Positions 1,828 through 35,070 of a stretch of DNA of 64,000 nucleotides are shown piece by piece. Both the position numbers and the translations under genes were made by a program. Where the stretch lies: the NCBI RefSeq assembly GCF_053078305.1, contig NZ_CP166879.1, one strand, 5' to 3'. Each line of letters opens with the position of its first letter. Position 1 is the stretch's first letter. Below the pieces are notes generated by a model. That model searched no databases, was not told where the DNA came from, and saw nothing but the letters and a program-made list of their open reading frames with translations.

Positions 1828-1985
1828 TGAAAAAGATACCCTTGTTGTTTGATCGTCGATAACGGGTATCAATGTGCACATGCAAATCGATGGCGTTTAT
1901 GTGTGCGCTGTCGAACGTTTGAAAATGGTTTTAGGGCGGTTTTAATGCTGGTTGATGTGGCGCTCTGTGGCGCTCGTTTTGGTGT

Positions 1986-2066
1986 GCTGGTGGCGGGGGT
2001 CGAACCCGCATACATGATCAGCCTGTACAGGCTGGCACCGACTCTACCCGTTGAGCGTACACCAGC
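1986..2066 (-). ncRNA. tRNA-like RNA 1 (canonical acceptor, D and T arms; aberrant anticodon arm; no encoded CCA)
   Basis: Minus strand has a 7-bp acceptor GCTGGTG/CACCAGC, U8-A9, and D arm GCTC-AACGGGTA-GAGT. T arm is GCGGG-TTCGACC-CCCGC. The central arm is the palindrome CAGCC-TGTACA-GGCTG (6-nt loop) flanked by extra nucleotides. Confidence 0.45.
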
Positions 2067-3916: not shown

Positions 3917-4120
3917 TACTCACCACTACTCACTTTTTTTACTCACTTTTTGGAATCGCTCACTTCGTCTCACCTGAGATTTTTGGTGTTTTTATGTGTG
4001 TGTTTTATAAGTGGTTTTTTACTACTCACTTTTTTGCCTATATACAGGTGAGAAAGTGAGTAATTTTGTTAATTTTTTGTAAAATTACTCACTTTACTCA
4101 CTTTTGCTCCTCACTTTTTT
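3917..4120. repeat. Iteron array, putative island replication origin
   Basis: At least 8 direct copies of (T)ACTCACTTT(T), for example at 3927, 3940, 4023, 4086, 4095 and 4109. Inverted copies (gtgagaaagtgagta) lie at 4048-4062. AT-rich spacers. The array abuts the stop codon of the RepA-like gene. Confidence 0.7.
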
Positions 4121-5516
4121 ACAGCGGTACTACGTCATCGCCGTCAATGCGTATAGTCTCGTCTTTCTCCAGTTTTGCTAACCATCGCCGCATGTTTTTC
4201 ACGTCATACCCAAGCCGTTTCATGTCGTCGCGCAACAACGAAATAGTGCACTTGTCGCCGTGCTGTGTGCGTGACCGGATGCAGCCCCATAGCGCGGTAT
4301 GGTTTTCCGTCTTGTTGCCAGCCTCCTCGATGCGCTCCACTTCAACGGGATGACGCGGCTTATCCACCACAACCAGAGACGTGATTAACTCCCCGTCAGC
4401 GTCGGTAAAAAGCTCAACTACCCGCAAATCGTAGGCAGCTTCTTTGAGTTCCTCTGCGTCCTTCATTTTGGTACATGAGATAACCAGCGCTTCGCTTCCT
4501 GCGTCCTCCCTGCGTATCCGGTATTCAGCATCCAGTGATGCACGAAATGCACTGGAACCACGCGCCCCCTTTGTTTCATCCTTGCCGGAATGGTGAACCA
4601 CCAGCACCGTTGCCCCTGTGCGCCGTTTCAGTTCGTCACACCCACGGATAAACGCCCCCATATCACGGGAATCATTTTCATCATTGCCACCAAAGCAACG
4701 CGCCAGCGTATCCAGAATAATCATGCGTACAGGTTTACCCGTTTCCCGTTCCACCTGGCGGGCAGCGATAACCATTTCATCAACATCAAGCGGGGCAGCC
4801 GGAAAGATGGGGCGGTTTACCAGATACAGATTTTTCACCTGCTCACCGTGCACAACCTCCCAGGCTTTTACACGACGCGGAACGCCGATACCGCCTTCAC
4901 CAACCACATAGAGAACAGCGCCATGCGCCACCCTGCGGCCTCCCCACTGGCGGCCCGTGGAAACGTGACACGCCCACGAACCCGCAAGGAACGATTTATA
5001 GGAACCGCTCGCCCCGTATATGCTGCACAGCGATACCGCCGGAATAATCCCCTTAACCACGTAATCCAGTTGCGTGTCATATCCGGCAGAACCAACGCTC
5101 ATCGGTAGCTTTGTTTTGCGCTGGTGGCCTTTTTCTTCCTGCTTTTCCCCGCGCTCCCGTTCCAGATATTCGCGCCAGTTCTCCCGCTTCTGGCTGTGCA
5201 TCCCATCGGGGTAGTAATTCGCATCCTGTACGCCTGCCGCTGCCAGTTTTTGCGCGATGGCATTAATATTTGATGGTCTGATATGGCTTGCTTTGTACAG
5301 CCGGACGCAATAGCGCCCCTCGTCAATGATTTTCGTGTCTGCCAGTTCTGCCAGTTGCTGCTCCCCAAGCCATACAGGTGGCACATTATCGCCAGCAAGT
5401 CGGCCCTCCTGCTCCTGCCACTGCTTCGCGTGTGCCCAGGCATCACTACCCACAAAAATAATGACCTCGGTCATTTTGTCGTAAGGCTGTTTTTTTAAGT
5501 TCGGTGCGCTTTTCAT
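4119..5516 (-). CDS. RepA-like RecA-fold replicative helicase/initiator (AAA_25-type)
   Basis: 465-aa ORF. Walker A-like GASGSYKS, Walker B MIILD, VLVVHHSGKD motif typical of RSF1010 RepA-like ATPases. Its start overlaps the upstream ORF stop (ATGA). Iterons lie immediately downstream. Confidence 0.7.
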   Translation of the reverse strand: MKSAPNLKKQPYDKMTEVIIFVGSDAWAHAKQWQEQEGRLAGDNVPPVWLGEQQLAELADTKIIDEGRYCVRLYKASHIRPSNINAIAQKLAAAGVQDANYYPDGMHSQKRENWREYLERERGEKQEEKGHQRKTKLPMSVGSAGYDTQLDYVVKGIIPAVSLCSIYGASGSYKSFLAGSWACHVSTGRQWGGRRVAHGAVLYVVGEGGIGVPRRVKAWEVVHGEQVKNLYLVNRPIFPAAPLDVDEMVIAARQVERETGKPVRMIILDTLARCFGGNDENDSRDMGAFIRGCDELKRRTGATVLVVHHSGKDETKGARGSSAFRASLDAEYRIRREDAGSEALVISCTKMKDAEELKEAAYDLRVVELFTDADGELITSLVVVDKPRHPVEVERIEEAGNKTENHTALWGCIRSRTQHGDKCTISLLRDDMKRLGYDVKNMRRWLAKLEKDETIRIDGDDVVPL

Positions 5517-5812
5517 TTCTTACCCCTGAATGCGTTAATCATCTTTTTCATCTTCTGTATTTTTGCCAGTGCCTTTACGTTGCTGGTGGGCACGTTACGC
5601 GGTACCGCCTGCACCAGAGAAAAATCACGGGAAAACTGATAAACAGGCATCACGCAGTCATATTCGTAGCCTTTACGGCGGTAGGTGACGCACCGCCCCG
5701 CCACGCCCTTAATCATTACCGTGCCGCCGTACTGGTCGCGGTAAATATCACCGCGCTTAAATTCAGGGCGAGGCTTGCCGCTGGCAGTTAAGCCAGTTTT
5801 TTTCATGTTCAT
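5513..5812 (-). CDS. Small basic protein, function unknown (possibly DUF4222-like)
   Basis: 99-aa ORF whose stop overlaps the replicase ATG, so it is operonic with the replicase. Confidence 0.5.
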   Translation of the reverse strand: MNMKKTGLTASGKPRPEFKRGDIYRDQYGGTVMIKGVAGRCVTYRRKGYEYDCVMPVYQFSRDFSLVQAVPRNVPTSNVKALAKIQKMKKMINAFRGKK

Positions 5813-5885
5813 TTTTTTATCCTTTGTTCTGGTCAGTTACGCCGTTGCTGCATAAATGCGGTTAGCGGTGCCTGTCGTTGCCTTA

Positions 5886-6200
5886 TCACGAATGGCGATA
5901 ATCAGCACTGATATCTCCGTTACGACAACGCCAGTTGTACACCTCCACAACCTCACTGAATCCGGCCACAAGTTCAGCCGTAACAGCGATGGAATCGCCC
6001 AGGCTGCGCAGTTCGTCCATGTCAGGATCAATGCTGTCACTCATGCCAGAAAGTAAGCGCCCTGTGATAGCCAGCCCTTCAAGCAGTTTGCGGGCGTAGA
6101 AATCAGCATCATCAAACATCGCTCTCGCTTCCCGTGCGTCAGCTGCTTTTATGGTTGTAACCAGTTGTTCAAGTATTCTGGTGTTACACACATCACGCAT
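5886..6200 (-). CDS. Hypothetical acidic protein translationally coupled to icd-like 1
   Basis: 104-aa ORF. Its ATG lies 5 nt before the icd-1 stop (ATGCGTGA, 6200-6193), the same geometry as P1 icd-ant coupling. Confidence 0.5.
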   Translation of the reverse strand: MRDVCNTRILEQLVTTIKAADAREARAMFDDADFYARKLLEGLAITGRLLSGMSDSIDPDMDELRSLGDSIAVTAELVAGFSEVVEVYNWRCRNGDISADYRHS

Positions 6201-6363
6201 GACTCACCCCCTCACGAATAAGGGTGACAAAAATCAGATGGGTGTGCGGAAGTTGTGCGCGTGCTTCGTGCTCAGTGGCAGCGGTAACGGTGAATATTGC
6301 AATGCTGCCTGTCAGGCACTGCATAAAGCGCCAGACAAAGTAAGGGCGTGCGGATACAGCCAT
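6193..6363 (-). CDS. Icd-like (host cell-division-inhibitor-like) small protein, copy 1
   Basis: 56 aa MAVSARPYFVWRFMQC...TVTAATEHEARAQLPHTHLIFV.... AGGAG lies 8 nt upstream of the ATG at 6363. The ORF track shows an in-frame 164-aa extension that I interpret mainly as RNA. Confidence 0.65.
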   Translation of the reverse strand: MAVSARPYFVWRFMQCLTGSIAIFTVTAATEHEARAQLPHTHLIFVTLIREGVSHA

Positions 6364-6371
6364 GTGAAAGG

Positions 6372-6586
6372 CTCCTATGTTTGAGGTAAGGAGTCTCGCT
6401 ACTACGCTGCTAAACATGGTGGCGAGACGTAACAGGGTTAGCAGACTGGCAACATAGAAACCAGCGAGCGCAAAGGCTCCCCCGTTACGCCCCGCCATAA
6501 TGCGGGTATGGGTAGGTTTACGGACACAAAAAAACCGCATATCGGAATGTAAGCGGCTGTCCGCTATGTTATTCAGGCTGCTAAAC
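6372..6586 (-). ncRNA. c4-like antisense RNA cassette 1 (targets, antisense core, SD-overlapping target)
   Basis: Plus-strand text: targets ctatgtt at 6564-6570 and 6375-6381, and ctgctaa at 6578-6584 and 6407-6413. Antisense aacatag at 6451-6457 and ttagcag at 6438-6444. Exact reverse complements. The distal target overlaps the icd-1 SD. Confidence 0.6.
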
Positions 6587-6649
6587 CCGGTCGCCATGTG
6601 GGTGACTCCGGCATCATACAGCCCGAAAGAAGAGGCGATCAACATGTTT

Positions 6650-6820
6650 TTATCCATGTGATGCCTCCTGACGGATACGGGCGACAAAAATCAGATGTGC
6701 GTGCGGCAGCCGGGCGCGTGCTTCGTGCTCAGTGGCAGCGGTAACGGTGAATACATCGATGTTACTGTGGTGGCACTGCATAAAGCGCCAGACAAAGTAA
6801 GGGCGTGCGAATACAGCCAT
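6650..6820 (-). CDS. Icd-like small protein, copy 2
   Basis: 56 aa MAVFARPYFVWRFMQCHHSNIDVFTVTAATEHEARARLPHAHLIFV.... AGGAG lies 8 nt upstream of the ATG at 6820. Confidence 0.65.
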   Translation of the reverse strand: MAVFARPYFVWRFMQCHHSNIDVFTVTAATEHEARARLPHAHLIFVARIRQEASHG

Positions 6821-6828
6821 GTGAAAGG

Positions 6829-7043
6829 CTCCTGTAGTGAAATTAAGGAGTCTCGCTACTACGCTGTCAAACATGGTGGCGAGACGTAACAGGGTTGACA
6901 GACTGGCACTACAGGAACCAGCGAGCGCAAAGGCTCCCCCGTTACGCCCCGCCATAATGCGGGTATGGGTAGGCTTACGGACACAAAAAAACCGCATATC
7001 GGAATGTAAGCGGCTGTCCGCTGTAGTATTCAGGCTGTCAAAC
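6829..7043 (-). ncRNA. c4-like antisense RNA cassette 2
   Basis: Targets ctgtagt at 7021-7027 and 6832-6838, and ctgtcaa at 7035-7041 and 6864-6870. Antisense actacag at 6908-6914 and ttgacag at 6895-6901. The backbone is nearly identical to cassette 1. Confidence 0.6.
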
Positions 7044-7106
7044 CCGGTCGCCATGTGGACGACTCCGGCATCATACAGCCCGAAAGAAGAGGCGATCAAC
7101 ATGTTT

Positions 7107-7295
7107 TTAAGCATGACTCACCCCCTGACGAATACGGGCGGCGAATACAGCGACACAACCGGACGGGCAACGGTTACGCGCTTCGCGTTCCGTCCAGGCG
7201 GTTACGTGGATGATTTGACGTTCTGACGTGCCAAAGGTGATAAAGCGCCAGATAAAGGCGGTTTGAGAATGTACGAGGGCAGGGGTAGTAGCCAT
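7107..7295 (-). CDS. Icd-like small protein, copy 3 (diverged)
   Basis: 62 aa MATTPALVHSQTAFIWRFITFGTSERQIIHVTAWTEREARNRCPSGCVAVFAARIRQGVSHA. AAGGAGG lies 8 nt upstream of the ATG at 7295. Confidence 0.6.
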   Translation of the reverse strand: MATTPALVHSQTAFIWRFITFGTSERQIIHVTAWTEREARNRCPSGCVAVFAARIRQGVSHA

Positions 7296-7303
7296 GATGG
7301 CAG

Positions 7304-7514
7304 CCTCCTTTATCGTTGGGATATACCCACCGCTGGAGGTTCCAATCTCGCTGGCGGTGGACTGCACGGAGTTGGAACTACTGGCGATAAAGGAAACCAG
7401 CCTGACCGAAGTCAGCCCCATACAGCCCACCATTGATAAGGTGTGCGTGTGCGCCGATACAAAAAAAGACGCGTTCGGCGTCTGTATCGCCTTTATCTCC
7501 AGCGGGGTTCCAAT
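7304..7514 (-). ncRNA. c4-like antisense RNA cassette 3 (diverged backbone, same architecture)
   Basis: Targets cctttatc at 7490-7497 and 7307-7314, and gttccaa at 7507-7513 and 7339-7345. Antisense gataaagg at 7386-7393 and ttggaac at 7372-7378. Strong hairpin GACGC-CGAAC-GCGTC plus U7 at 7461-7482. Confidence 0.55.
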
Positions 7515-7825
7515 CCCGACACCCGTTTTATGAGGTGCGCGGGAATCATAGCCATTTTTGATACTGGCGATCAACTGATTTTCTCTGGCGGGTATTTGGC
7601 GCGGATGCCTGTTACCTGTGGCAATATACACACGACTGTATACAATACACATCGGTTAACTCCTTATATTCCGTTGATGGCCCGTAGTGTTATTGCATTG
7701 CGGGTATTTTTTACCTGCCGTTAATTGAATGCGGCAAGGCATCACGACGGTTAACCCGTTTTGCATAACGTGAGGCGTTTTATTTTCTGCGCTGGTGGCT
7801 TTTATATTTCACATATGGGAATTTA

Positions 7826-8029
7826 TTATTCCTGCTGATAACGCTCCTCTACTTTCTTCTCAAGCCATGATTTCACCTCATCCTCAAACCAGCCAACGCG
7901 GCGTAATCCACGCTTAAAACCAGGAATAAATTCACCAGCCTTAACCATTGTGTCAATGCTCGTTGTACTAAGGCGAAGAAGATTTGCGACTTCTCGTTTT
8001 GTAAGGATTTTCTTTTCTGTAATGTTCAT
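7826..8029 (-). CDS. AlpA-family phage/island HTH regulator (excision/transcription control)
   Basis: 67-aa ORF. ...LTKREVANLLRLSTTSIDTMVKAGEFIPGFKRGLRRVGWFEDEVKSWL... matches the AlpA/Phage_AlpA pattern from memory. Confidence 0.8.
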   Translation of the reverse strand: MNITEKKILTKREVANLLRLSTTSIDTMVKAGEFIPGFKRGLRRVGWFEDEVKSWLEKKVEERYQQE

Positions 8030-8166: not shown

Positions 8167-9063
8167 TCAGTCGTCAACGTCTGCAAGCCACTTACCTATG
8201 CATGTTGGTGTGGCACCGATATCAACGCCTGCTTTGGTTAGTGCGCGGCTTAACTTGCTGTGACCGTTTTCAAGCGCCCTTCGTGGGTTTGACGCCTCTT
8301 CTTCTCCGGCTATAGCGGTGATTAGTCTTTTGATAACTCTGGCCTGAAGATTGGTTGTTTTCTTTGATGGGGGTGGTTTATTGATGTTTAATTCATCCAT
8401 GTTTTCAATAGAAGCGGTACGCCCTCCGTTTATGGCTAAATCTATCTCACTTCTGGAAATAAAAATATCGTTACGTGATATATCCCATCCCTGTAATAAA
8501 ATCGCAGCTTTAAAATCATCCTCGTCATCGTTATCGATTATCTGAATGTATTTAGTATTTGTTGTATCGTGAAATGATAATCTTTCAATGTCTGCGCTGT
8601 TAGCCTTTACATTAAGCAATCCATCAGCTTTAACATATATTTCTTTTGCGGGTGTTATTATTTGTGCGTTTTTTATCTCTGGCTCATCTTCAGCAAAAAT
8701 ATTCATGCTGAAATAATCACCATATGATGAGTAATGATAGTTTATGTTGAGTCCTGCATGTGCATAATAAAAAACATCTATTGGAGTGAGTAGCTTATTT
8801 ATAGATGTGGCATCAATGATTACATTGCAATATTCATTTGTGTAATGCTGGTATAATGTTTTATTAGCACTGATAAGCTCAGGCTTTACCCCTTCATAAT
8901 ACTTTAATGTCAGTTTTTCATTTATATTAATGCGATACAAAAAACGCATCCTCCTCGTAGCGATGAAATGAAGCAAATCATCAACGTCACACTCAAGCCT
9001 TCTGGCTGCCTTGTCTAACGGGTAATAATCCCTTTCAGGAAGGTTTATTTTTTTGTTTGCCAT
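8167..9063 (-). CDS. AT-rich orphan protein of unknown function (island cargo)
   Basis: 298-aa ORF starting 4 nt after the integrase stop. Its central part is visibly more AT-rich than neighbouring genes. I recognise no motif. Confidence 0.6.
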   Translation of the reverse strand: MANKKINLPERDYYPLDKAARRLECDVDDLLHFIATRRMRFLYRININEKLTLKYYEGVKPELISANKTLYQHYTNEYCNVIIDATSINKLLTPIDVFYYAHAGLNINYHYSSYGDYFSMNIFAEDEPEIKNAQIITPAKEIYVKADGLLNVKANSADIERLSFHDTTNTKYIQIIDNDDEDDFKAAILLQGWDISRNDIFISRSEIDLAINGGRTASIENMDELNINKPPPSKKTTNLQARVIKRLITAIAGEEEASNPRRALENGHSKLSRALTKAGVDIGATPTCIGKWLADVDD

Positions 9064-9067
9064 GCCC

Positions 9068-10348
9068 TTAACCGTTAACCATTTTTAACCCACGATAGCC
9101 ACCCGTGGCGCTTACGCTCCCGCTGGCAGCTGCCTCTACAAAATCCCCCCACCACGCCATTAACGGGCGTCGCTGCTCGAGATAGGTTGAGCGGTTGTAC
9201 GCACGGCGAACCTCGTTTTTATCTATGTGTGACAATGCCGCCTCGATTACGTCAGAGTCAAAACCTTGCTCGTTAAGTGCGGTACTTGCTATTGAGCGCA
9301 AGCCATGAGCAACCAGCCGCCCACTAAAACCCATGCGTTTTATTGCTGCGTTTGCTGTTTGTACGCACATATGGCGCTGCGGGTCGCTGTTGTGTGGAAA
9401 TATAAACTCACGATGCCCGCTTATTGGCTTCATGACGTCCAGAATGGCTAACGCCTGCTTCGAGAGTGGTATTACGTGTTCCCTGCGTTGTTTAAGTCTG
9501 TGCTCTGGTATGCGCCATTCCTTCACCTCAAAATCAATTTCACACCAGCGCGCGCCAGCTGCTTCACCTGGTCGGCAAATTGTCAGTAGCTGCCACTCAA
9601 TGACCAGCCGCGTTTGTCGTTCCACCCGTGCCGTTGCCAGCTTCTGCATAAATTCGGGGAGTTCTTCAGGGCGTATTGCTGGCATGTTCTTAACGCTTGG
9701 CGCGTTAAATGCCTTGCTTATCTCTGATGCCGGATTCGCGGCAATCATTCCGGTATTAACGGCGTAATACATGACCTCATTGATTCGCTGTGCTGTCCTT
9801 CTGACGGTATCTAATTTCCCCTGGGCGGCTAATGGTTTTAATGCTTCGATGAAATTGCTTGCTATCAGGTCTGCTATTGGCCTGTTACCGACTGACGGGA
9901 ATACATTACGCTCCAGCGAACGCCATATATCGCGTAGTGTATCTTCTGCGAGTCCTTGCCCTTTTTTAAGTTCAAACCAGAGCGTAGCTACATGCCTGAA
10001 GGTGTTCTCTCTCTTCATCACTTCACTAAGGCGCTGTTTCTCTCTGTGCTCTTTTGGGTCAATGCCACCAGAAAGAAGCGCTCTGTATTCGTCTTTTATC
10101 TTTCGCGCGCCCGCAATGCTGATTTCTGGATATGCGCCAATGCTTAACATGGCCCGTTTTTTTGTGTGTGGCTTGTAGTAGCGGTAACGCCACAAGCAAG
10201 AGGCGCTTTTGTGCTTAATCACCAGTTCCAGCCCTTCGCCGTCAGTGATGAAAAGGTCCTTTTTTTCGTTGCTGGCTTTTCGCTGGAGGCTTTTTATCGT
10301 TGCGGGTGATAAAGACTTAACTTTTTTGGTCACCGGTTCAACTCCCAT
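9068..10348 (-). CDS. P4-type tyrosine integrase (DUF4102 N-terminal arm-binding domain plus catalytic domain)
   Basis: 426-aa ORF. Catalytic-type motifs ICRPGEAAGARW, HGLRSIAST and LSHIDKNEVRRAYNRSTY (R...HxxR...H...Y). Lies next to a tRNA gene. Confidence 0.9.
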   Translation of the reverse strand: MGVEPVTKKVKSLSPATIKSLQRKASNEKKDLFITDGEGLELVIKHKSASCLWRYRYYKPHTKKRAMLSIGAYPEISIAGARKIKDEYRALLSGGIDPKEHREKQRLSEVMKRENTFRHVATLWFELKKGQGLAEDTLRDIWRSLERNVFPSVGNRPIADLIASNFIEALKPLAAQGKLDTVRRTAQRINEVMYYAVNTGMIAANPASEISKAFNAPSVKNMPAIRPEELPEFMQKLATARVERQTRLVIEWQLLTICRPGEAAGARWCEIDFEVKEWRIPEHRLKQRREHVIPLSKQALAILDVMKPISGHREFIFPHNSDPQRHMCVQTANAAIKRMGFSGRLVAHGLRSIASTALNEQGFDSDVIEAALSHIDKNEVRRAYNRSTYLEQRRPLMAWWGDFVEAAASGSVSATGGYRGLKMVNG

Positions 10349-10531: not shown

Positions 10532-10607
10532 TGGTGGCCCCTGCTGGACTTGAACCAGCGACCAAGCGATTATGAGTCGCCTGCTCTAACCACTGAGCTA
10601 AGGGGCC
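10532..10607 (-). tRNA. ileX: tRNA-Ile2 (anticodon CAU, lysidine-modified)
   Basis: 76-nt GGCCCCTTAGCTCAGTGGTTAGAGCAGGCGACTCATAATCGCTTGGTCGCTGGTTCAAGTCCAGCAGGGGCCACCA. Full cloverleaf, encoded CCA, located between mug and yqjH as in K-12. Confidence 0.93.
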
Positions 10608-22908: not shown

Positions 22909-23063
22909 GTCGGATGCCTGGCGTTGTCCACGATTGCGTAGGCCGAATAAGGCGTTCACGCCGCATCCGGCAATCAACGCCTGATGCGACGCTTGCGCGT
23001 CTTATCAGGCCTACAACTGTCGTTGACGTGTAGCCGGATAAGGCGTTTACGCCGCATCCGGCA
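22909..23063. repeat. BIME (cluster of REP elements)
   Basis: Three REP-like units (ggccgaataaggcgttcacgccgcatccggca, gatgcgacgcttgcgcgtcttatcaggcctac, gccggataaggcgtttacgccgcatccggca). Confidence 0.75.
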
Positions 23064-30886: not shown

Positions 30887-30966
30887 CCGGAAAGCGGTTC
30901 ACAGATCTCGCTTCGTACATGGCAGGCCTATTGACGCTGTTGTTTTTTCAACCTAGAGTAAAGGAA

Positions 30967-31108
30967 CAAGGGTAAGGGAGGATTTCTCCCCCCTCTGATG
31001 AGTTGTTAGTAAGTCGGGAAACTTAACAGTAACAACACAACCAGTATGATGACGAGCTTCATCATAACCCTTTCCTTCTATAAGGCCCCTTCCTCGGGAG
31101 GGGCTTTC
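30967..31108 (+). ncRNA. sibE: Sib antisense antitoxin RNA (ends approximate)
   Basis: Fully overlaps ibs on the opposite strand. GC-rich hairpin ggcccct...aggggc plus T-rich tail near 31084-31108. Confidence 0.55.
31006..31065 (-). CDS. ibsE: Ibs type I toxin, 19 aa MMKLVIILVVLLLLSFPTY
   Basis: Hydrophobic 19-aa ORF below the track cutoff. K-12 order is yqiK-ibsD/sibD-ibsE/sibE-hldE. The D versus E assignment rests on position only. Confidence 0.7.
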   Translation of the reverse strand: MMKLVIILVVLLLLSFPTY

Positions 31109-31341
31109 CCGTTTCAGCCCCTTGCTGACTCCCCGATTGTTGATGAGCGCCGGACCCCGCGCAACGCTTTCCCTGAAGCAGTTTTGCCTTCCCCGAGCGG
31201 TCACGCAAAACGCTGCAACGTCCTGAGCATTTGCACCTTTTAGCGGAACGCAGATATAAAAAATCCCCGGCTTTTTGGGCCAGGGATATGCGTTAATGAA
31301 ACCTTCTTGACGCTGATTTTTTTTCAACCTAAAGTAAAGGA

Positions 31342-31483
31342 ACAAGGGTGAGGGAGGATTTCTCCCCCTCTGATTGGCTGTTAATAAGCTGCGAAACTTA
31401 CGAGTAACAACACAATCAGTATGATGACGAGCTTCATCATAACCCTTTCCTTATACAAGGCCCCTTCTTCGGGAGGGGCTTTC
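31342..31483 (+). ncRNA. sibD: Sib antisense antitoxin RNA (ends approximate)
   Basis: Same architecture as the first copy. Confidence 0.55.
31381..31440 (-). CDS. ibsD: Ibs type I toxin, 19 aa MMKLVIILIVLLLVSFAAY
   Basis: Second copy, 375 bp from the first. Confidence 0.7.
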   Translation of the reverse strand: MMKLVIILIVLLLVSFAAY

Positions 31484-34920: not shown

Positions 34921-35070
34921 GCTTATTCTCAGGGCGGGGCGAAATTCCCCACCGGCGGTAAATCAACTCAGTTGAAAGCCCGCGAGCGCTTTGGGTGCGA
35001 ACTCAAAGGACAGCAGATCCGGTGTAATTCCGGGGCCGACGGTTAGAGTCCGGATGGGAGAGAGTAACGA
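34921..35070 (+). promoter_or_regulatory. FMN riboswitch (RFN element) in the ribB leader
   Basis: gcttattctcagggcggggcgaaattccccaccggcggtaaa...ccggggccgacggttagagtccggatgggagagagtaacga carries the conserved RFN helices and lies upstream of ribB. Confidence 0.9.

Follow-up and report, generated by a model that had tools for sequence, protein, structure and literature searches.

Which role can be assigned to a gene for a protein of 104 amino acids that resembles no described family, and that starts inside the last codons of the third of three icd genes, each under its own antisense RNA? Such a gene, orf104, lies on the minus strand of the window, as we call the whole stretch of 64,000 nucleotides analysed here. 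The original prediction placed it in the slot that the antirepressor occupies in P1, and regarded it as a candidate output of an RNA switch: a helper derepressor, an anti-defence factor or a replication licensing factor. The acidic ORF itself is present as described (pI 4.55, 19 D+E against 12 K+R), and so are the position of its ATG within the end of icd and the three antisense locks upstream. The reasoning about its expression and its role had to be changed at several points.

The island and its regulatory array

The island is a PICI/P4-like satellite of about 8.5 kb, located on the minus strand of a segment of the E. coli chromosome at tRNA-Ile2 (anticodon CAT, 10532-10607). Its genes are transcribed in the order integrase, 298-aa ORF, AlpA, RNA/ORF array, orf104, DUF4222, RepA/AAA_25, SSB, PerC and Mor-like (Table 1). 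It has the integrase, alpA and replication genes in this order at a tRNA and falls into the size class of about 8-15 kb, as is typical of Gram-negative PICIs, and no phage structural or lysis genes were found in it. The same island, at 97-98% identity, occurs in 7 of 5426 complete E. coli genomes. The 298-aa ORF has no match in Pfam, NCBIfam, PHROGs or PADLOC; at its place related islands have ORFs of unrelated length, from 277 to 357 aa.

Several smaller observations concern the surroundings. On the plus strand of the window, Rfam finds two Sib antitoxin RNAs, an FMN riboswitch and naRNA4 (30931-31080, 31307-31455, 34921-35069 and 22941-23011), which are ordinary features of the E. coli chromosome; hence the window is chromosomal. 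At the distal end of the island there is a tRNA-like sequence (1985-2066, minus strand) that scores 35 bits with the Rfam tRNA model and is not called by ARAGORN. In locus L001, which represents the closest E. coli relatives, PGAP labels the distal tRNA-like element as tRNA-Tyr, with an adjacent 'tRNA-OTHER', and similar elements are also found beyond Mor in loci L002 and L025.

Table 1. Features of the island, in the order of transcription (positions refer to the window)
Feature	Position	Strand	Remarks
Integrase, adjoining tRNA-Ile2	9068..10348	-	proximal end of the island
ORF of 298 aa between integrase and alpA	8167-9063	-	
AlpA/HTH_17 regulator	7826..8029	-	operon head; Pfam
Unit 1 Ash/eta-like ORF	7107..7652	-	isrK 7462-7538, C4 7350-7437, icd-like 7107-7295
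Unit 2 eta-like ORF	6650..7114	-	holds isrK-like 6985-7063, C4 6872-6959, icd-like 6650-6820
Unit 3 isrK/seqA-like element and promoter-like sequence	6528..6642	-	isrK/seqA-like 6528-6606 (below threshold); TTGATC-18-TATGAT 6613-6642
C4 antisense RNA gene, unit 3	6415..6502	-	Rfam, 73.3 bits
Targets of C4 unit 3	6373..6413	-	a2 6407-6413, b2 6373-6381; b2 spans icd SD
Last icd-like ORF (icd-1 of the original prediction)	6193..6363	-	56 aa; NCBIfam NF033153 'Icd-like', E 9e-12
SD-like GAGGGGGUG	6205..6213	-	4 nt 5' of orf104 ATG, inside icd coding sequence
Stop/start overlap ATGCGTGA, last icd-like ORF and orf104	6193..6200	-	8 nt
orf104 CDS	5886..6200	-	104 codons; ORF listing and PGAP CDS annotation
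Recombination joint	5824..5907	-	homology breakpoints
Relic coupling junction CATTCGTGA	5886..5894	-	homologues have CATGCGTGA with embedded primase ATG
DUF4222 gene	5513..5812	-	next in operon after orf104, 73-nt gap
RepA-family (AAA_25) helicase gene	4119..5516	-	

Between alpA and orf104 the minus strand carries, from 7652 to 6193, a repeated RNA/ORF array of three tandem isrK-C4-icd units. The three C4 antisense RNA genes (7437-7350, 6959-6872 and 6502-6415) score 72-78 bits with Rfam RF01695, for which the gathering score is 45. Each of them has two loops, a' and b', that are complementary to its own 7-nt a2 and 9-10-nt b2 sequences located just downstream, and the b2 of each unit spans the Shine-Dalgarno sequence (SD) of the icd that follows; with both the family match and the loop complementarity these are C4 modules. 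Compensatory changes among the units make each C4 fit its own targets only, so that the array has three specificities. The icd-like copies score 44.8, 54.9 and 56.0 bits with NF033153 (cut-off 25), and are thus Icd-like; for the last copy tblastn gives 49% identity to P1 Icd.

An isrK/seqA-type RNA (Rfam RF01394) is found in unit 1 at 7538-7462, and the isrK-like and c4-a1b1-like elements of units 2 and 3 were found at permissive thresholds only. Every unit has the promoter-like sequence TTGATC-18-TATGAT, with its -10 element ending 7 nt before the isrK-like 5' end. At all three icd ends (7107/7114, 6650/6657 and 6193/6200) there is an identical 8-nt overlap with the next ATG, which gives the eta-like ORF of unit 2 such an overlap at each end. 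A longer eta-like ORF begins at the ATG at 6657, and the last icd-like ORF forms its C-terminal part. In the manner of P4 eta/kil, each C4 gene is crossed in frame by a long ORF that continues into icd, the lengths being 164 aa (6193-6687), 154 aa (6650-7114) and 181 aa (7107-7652); given that the Pfam Phage_ASH match covers the part that overlaps the RNA genes, this family may partly describe an RNA locus. Locus L001 has two units only, compared with three in the window, so their copy number varies.

A genuine gene for a small helical protein

In matching E. coli islands PGAP labels orf104 as a hypothetical protein, and one could argue that it is a non-functional or untranslated ORF, a by-product of constraints on the junction sequence and the mRNA leader. 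Its lack of a known domain and its very narrow family would agree with this. We nevertheless reject this idea on dN/dS and conservation and regard it as highly improbable. The dN/dS ratio is 0.05-0.35, well below 1, in all informative pairs; homologues down to 52% identity keep the length and 26 invariant residues; the SD and the start are conserved; and a distant paralogue is recognisable through reciprocal HMM matches. The structure prediction that had been proposed as a check gave a confident AlphaFold2 model, a three-helix bundle (H7-19, H22-53, H61-93; pLDDT 87.4, pTM 0.76) with a disordered tail from about residue 94 and a conserved tip, TGRLLS...ELRSLGDS. Hence orf104 is a genuine gene for a small acidic three-helix protein.

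As to what kind of protein this is, the original prediction recognised nothing in it, and our searches agree: orf104 has no family match in Pfam (E<0.01), NCBIfam, PHROGs, PADLOC or a PDB profile search, and in particular no AntA, Bro-N, pRha or KilAC domain according to Pfam, PHROGs and NCBIfam. Fold searches returned generic helical bundles only and nothing specific, and neither the 50,697 phage records nor the 72,556 plasmids searched gave a tblastn match. An exhaustive HMM search of 1.8 billion representatives returned 8 matches, which are the eight representatives of the orf104 family itself at 50% identity, with no bridge to a known family. The family comprises 49 protein clusters at 90% identity, nearly all from Enterobacteriaceae, with additional members in Plesiomonas and metagenomes. 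It is rare and patchy, being present in 38 of 5426 complete E. coli genomes, and a scan of species-representative genomes yielded two loci only.

At many loci, an ORF of 98-108 aa directly 5' of orf104 is its distant paralogue (hhalign E 7e-5 over 83 columns), and among 2165 ORFs reciprocal HMM matches occur only between the orf104 group and the paralogue group. The orf104 type and the paralogous 98-108-aa type are thus the two branches of a superfamily that is very narrow and specific to satellites. Where both are present they form a tandem pair; the paralogue lies at 5712-6008 in L002, 5199-5525 in L010, 6688-7008 in L009, 3347-3664 in L020 and 5685-6008 in L025, and the window is without it. 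A 77-aa member of the superfamily is found directly 5' of toprim in L023 (1940-2173).

How would this gene be expressed? Its ATG (6200-6198) precedes the TGA of the icd-like ORF (6195-6193), and ATGNNTGA is the start sequence of orf104 in all ten homologous loci, with the 8-nt overlap kept. As the upstream stop is formed by a T together with the GA of ATGNNTGA, the third residue is a near-invariant Asp and the second is free. The statement that no independent SD is evident was wrong. GAGGGGGUG is separated from the ATG by 4 nt, and its duplex with the anti-SD is predicted at -12.1 kcal/mol, compared with -5.4 to -6.6 for five neighbouring genes, and a G-rich SD is present 5-9 nt upstream in 10 of 10 homologous loci, irrespective of the preceding ORF. 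The argument that orf104 probably depends on icd translation for want of an SD fails with this, since a strong and conserved SD is there. The conclusion itself retains some ground from the layout, the conserved overlap and the precedent of Gifsy-1, where translational coupling at the orf45-anrP stop/start junction was shown experimentally (PMC4825925). According to folding predictions, a local hairpin pairs this SD in the window, where its probability of being unpaired is 0.09. The same is predicted for L001 and L002, and pairing is inconsistent elsewhere among the homologous loci, so that sequestration of the SD is a weak support for coupling.

The mechanism we propose would work as follows. 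orf104 would be transcribed within an operon that runs through the three tandem isrK-C4-icd units. Each C4 would pair with its own a2 and b2 and so mask the SD of icd, which, as in P1 and P4, would halt translation and transcription ahead of the downstream genes. With the block removed, ribosomes that reach the end of the last icd/eta-like ORF would terminate 8 nt inside orf104 and restart at its ATG, aided by the strong SD that would otherwise be partly buried in the hairpin. Given the P1/P4-like layout, the conserved overlap and the Gifsy-1 coupling, we consider it likely that orf104 is gated by RNA immunity and translationally coupled. That it should be under all three locks, as originally proposed, would apply to transcripts coming from upstream. 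A constitutive promoter lies inside P4 eta, the translation of which is reported to prevent termination (PMC10111431), and if the promoters of the units work as in P4 eta, transcripts born in unit 3 would meet the last lock only. Nor should orf104 be called the output of the switch: the whole replication operon lies downstream of the C4 locks together with it.

Neighbours and mosaic alleles

The most regular property of the superfamily is its neighbourhood. In 11 of 12 genomic contexts a member lies immediately 5' of a Toprim_3/DUF927 primase, the exception being the window, where DUF4222/RepA follows orf104. The toprim gene was found in 32 complete E. coli genomes, with orf104 directly 5' of it in 32/32 and never without it; in these genomes the end of orf104 is CATGCGTGA, which contains the ATG of the Toprim_3 gene, and the DUF927 gene comes next. 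The adjacency to Toprim_3(+DUF927) is also found in Klebsiella grimontii, E. albertii, Tenebrionibacter and a freshwater metagenome, in which the primase is a fused protein of 910 aa. Three of the four most divergent relatives recovered have it too; in the fourth (L023/L024), DUF927 comes first and the homologue of orf104 follows after about 1 kb. As far as the searches show, neither the superfamily nor its fixed place before the Toprim/DUF927 primase has been described.

On its upstream side orf104 has varying neighbours: icd, the orf98 paralogue, a 279-aa ORF after Bro-N, or five small ORFs. Up to five ORFs lie between icd and orf104 in relatives, sibling islands have differing sets of small unknown ORFs in the zone from the last icd to the replication genes, and a scan of nine related loci detected no C4 RNA in L009, L021 and L023. 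Since the adjacency to the primase is kept while upstream neighbours change, the conserved partner of orf104 is the primase module and not icd. The 'ant' slot is a fair description of the window alone, which has a layout like P1 c4-icd-ant1; the neighbour that is kept throughout the family is the Toprim/DUF927 primase.

Sibling satellites have AntA, Bro-N or pRha genes upstream of their C4 units, in addition to orf104. These genes lie between alpA and the Ash/C4 unit (L027 4201-5037, L021 3142-3735, L025 3213-4524) and are coupled to this unit by the same 8-nt overlap; the island of the window has none of them.

Why is the window the exception? According to our comparison of alleles, it is a recent recombinant in which an unrelated DUF4222/RepA module has replaced the primase, with a breakpoint at about codon 93. 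The orf104 allele of the window differs at 1 nt in the first 278 from the L027 allele that lies 5' of toprim, and the two diverge after nt 278, through the disordered tail. In the direction of transcription, the window matches orf104 alleles of the primase type as far as 5908 and islands of the DUF4222/RepA type from 5823 onwards. The ATG of the primase at the junction has become ATT in the window, and the folded part of orf104 is intact after the swap. A domain shared by RepA or DUF4222 and the toprim/DUF927 proteins was considered as a cause of the retention of orf104 and rejected, as no similarity between them was found. Between two RepA-type islands, seven codons of orf104 differ synonymously and four non-synonymously (omega 0.15, naive P 6e-4); this dN/dS rests on few and clustered differences, six of the 13 nucleotide changes being clustered. 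An orf104 that is intact beside an unrelated RepA argues against a strict dependence on Toprim/DUF927.

A similar mosaicism is seen where the primase is present. Between L002 and L015 the flanks are 97-99% identical, and the first 250 nt of orf104 only 55-82% (dS 0.39), which indicates that orf104 alleles move as cassettes with breakpoints at conserved junctions. Divergent alleles, of about 75% amino acid identity, stand beside primases that are 97-99% identical; hence allele and primase do not co-vary. The boundaries of cassettes in these satellites consist of a G-rich SD, about 5 nt, and then CATGNNTGA, the 8-nt stop/start overlap, which forces the C-termini of the proteins to ...SH[AV]. They are found at 6193-6200, 6650-6657 and 7107-7114 in the window, at 5255-5262, 5712-5719, 6001-6008 and 6308-6315 in L002, and in the chains of L010 and L025. 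As the breakpoints of homology between islands fall on them, the conserved junctions seem to act as recombination joints as well.

Possible roles and known systems

The reading that we prefer, though tentatively, is that orf104 is a gated and coupled early-operon gene, the product of which would probably be a replication accessory or regulator of the satellite in the position of Cnr. Our confidence that it is a real, gated and coupled early gene is much higher than that in the reading as a whole. Normally orf104 would hold the place of P4 Cnr, as the last small ORF, and its stop would run into the start of the Toprim_3/DUF927 primase gene. The deepest and most consistent of our signals is this link to the primase module, which makes a replication accessory the best guess; judged by synteny, the replication licensing factor would be the best fit among the three functions suggested originally. 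Against a replication role count the absence of homology to Cnr, the swapping of alleles independently of the primase and the persistence of the gene beside an unrelated replication module, and the same three points keep alive a role directed at the helper or the host. The association with the primase could alternatively be due to lineage inheritance and not to function, and the coupling to toprim is not specific, as every gene in the chain uses the same junction.

Could orf104 be a derepressor of the helper instead? On this view it would be an analogue of P4 epsilon, P1 Ant or AnrP, a predicted binder of the helper repressor that is made only upon opening of the RNA immunity switch and that induces the helper prophage. 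In the window its position is that of P4 epsilon, down to the 8-nt overlap, and also that of P1 ant1 and of anrP (PMC4825925); a small acidic helical protein with one strongly conserved tip would suit a protein-binding module; the independent swapping of alleles would be expected of a factor matched to a variable external partner; and the gene has stayed intact beside an unrelated replication module. Nevertheless, there is no similarity to epsilon (PF25738), AntA, Bro-N, pRha or KilAC, the adjacency to icd is not kept, with up to five intervening ORFs and loci where C4 went undetected, and AntA, Bro-N or pRha are already present in satellites whose orf104 alleles are the same or related. Especially these sibling genes, located upstream of the C4 units, weaken the idea, and in our opinion it is less supported than a replication accessory and unlikely, if worth keeping in mind. 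The more specific version, that orf104 is a new type of small antirepressor, unlike epsilon in sequence, which is released by the C4/icd switch and induces or reprograms the helper, we consider improbable.

Rather unlikely, too, is an early effector directed at the host or phage, which would counter defence, inhibit a host factor or interfere with the helper, and which would be carried as a swappable accessory cassette in the variable zone that separates immunity from replication genes. The differing small ORFs that fill the zone from icd to replication in sibling islands would fit this, as would the small size and acidity of the product, the rarity of the family and the fact that orf104 is an island of local divergence between satellites otherwise 97-99% identical. 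On the contrary, orf104 differs from the genes around it in the variable zone in having a fixed place at the side of the primase even among deeply divergent relatives, and the selection on it is purifying and not diversifying. No PADLOC model matches it, which bears on a defence role only and not on anti-defence, given that PADLOC holds proteins of defence systems.

What would follow depends on the reading. If orf104 controls replication, a large group of non-P4 satellites would have in it a counterpart of Cnr. Should it act on the helper, it would bear on how Gram-negative PICIs talk to their helpers, and if the antirepressor reading were true, PICI-like satellites would actively wake the helper, with swappable alleles setting helper specificity. 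Independently of this, two things are new: a superfamily of small helical proteins, restricted to satellites and without a characterised member, that delimits the Toprim_3/DUF927 replication module on its 5' side, and the shuffling of cassettes by satellites at the conserved SD-CATGNNTGA coupling junction. The regulatory frame is known from P1, P4, Gifsy-1 and PICIs, so the finding adds a protein and not a principle.

Among known systems P4 Cnr offers the nearest comparison for a replication role. Cnr (ORF106, Pfam PF17345 DUF5375) regulates copy number, its gene being located directly 5' of that for the P4 alpha primase-helicase, and it is said, by Ziegelin et al. 1997, to act on alpha. Like orf104, it is an all-alpha protein of about 105 aa and the last small ORF before a Zn-ribbon/Toprim_3 primase, in an operon of alpA, eta (C4/CI), small ORFs and primase; a typical P4-like element reads alpA-eta-orf75-cnr-alpha and is the same kind of coupled chain, and the pre-primase place belongs to Cnr in P4-like elements (PMC8628076). 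The two differ when secondary structures are compared, with four helices in Cnr (H7-29, H37-56, H58-71, H86-100) and three in orf104, and the helicase domain of the partner is D5_N/DUF5906 in the one case and DUF927 in the other. In the window, moreover, the pre-primase place is lost, with DUF4222/RepA in its stead. Homology of orf104 to Cnr was rejected, for there is no Pfam match and hhalign of 30 orf104 against 25 Cnr sequences gives a probability of 0.8%. Homology to the 75-aa ORF of P4-like elements was likewise rejected on comparison.

P4 epsilon (PF25738 'Derepression', 95 aa) is the antirepressor of the C repressor of the helper P2. Its reading frame opens 8 nt before the end of the eta/kil ORF, which is icd-like and spans the CI/C4 RNA, as the eta-like ORFs of the window span C4. 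The overlap measures 8 nt in P4 (8168-8175) and in the window (6193-6200), and a start at the eta/kil end is found at only some homologous loci. Unlike epsilon, the orf104 family stays beside the primase and not beside icd. Homology was rejected here as well: orf104 has no PF25738 match, hhalign gives a probability of 0.3%, and epsilon itself scores 170 bits with this model.

The isrK-orf45-anrP region of Gifsy-1 shares with the window an upstream isrK-type RNA and a small ORF the stop of which overlaps the next start (PMC4825925); it differs in that its downstream gene product, AnrP, leads to AntQ expression, and in having no replication module. In Gram-negative PICIs, which are described as having four zones, Integration, Bro, Replication and Late, and in which C4/isrK elements have already been reported, int and alpA are followed by the C4/isrK RNA zone and then by replication genes with SSB (PMC10111431), and in other E. 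coli PICIs PerC and Mor follow (PMC11773190), all as in the window. The island of the window is distinguished by its triplicated immunity unit, and it is without a Bro-domain protein or recognisable late or packaging genes. orf104 is not described in these two papers.

The P1 immI region (c4-icd-ant1/ant2) shows, according to the P1 record, the same elements: a C4, a2 and b2 over the SD of icd, icd, and an overlapping gene that needs icd, with the same geometry of C4 loops and targets as in the units of the window. It has one unit only, with an overlap of 4 nt, and its Ant1 is an antirepressor of 347 aa. The window carries three copies of the module, each with a specificity of its own, and as in P4 they lead into a replication operon. 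With its identical 8-nt overlap, the junction at orf104 resembles the eta/kil-epsilon junction of P4 even more closely than that of P1.
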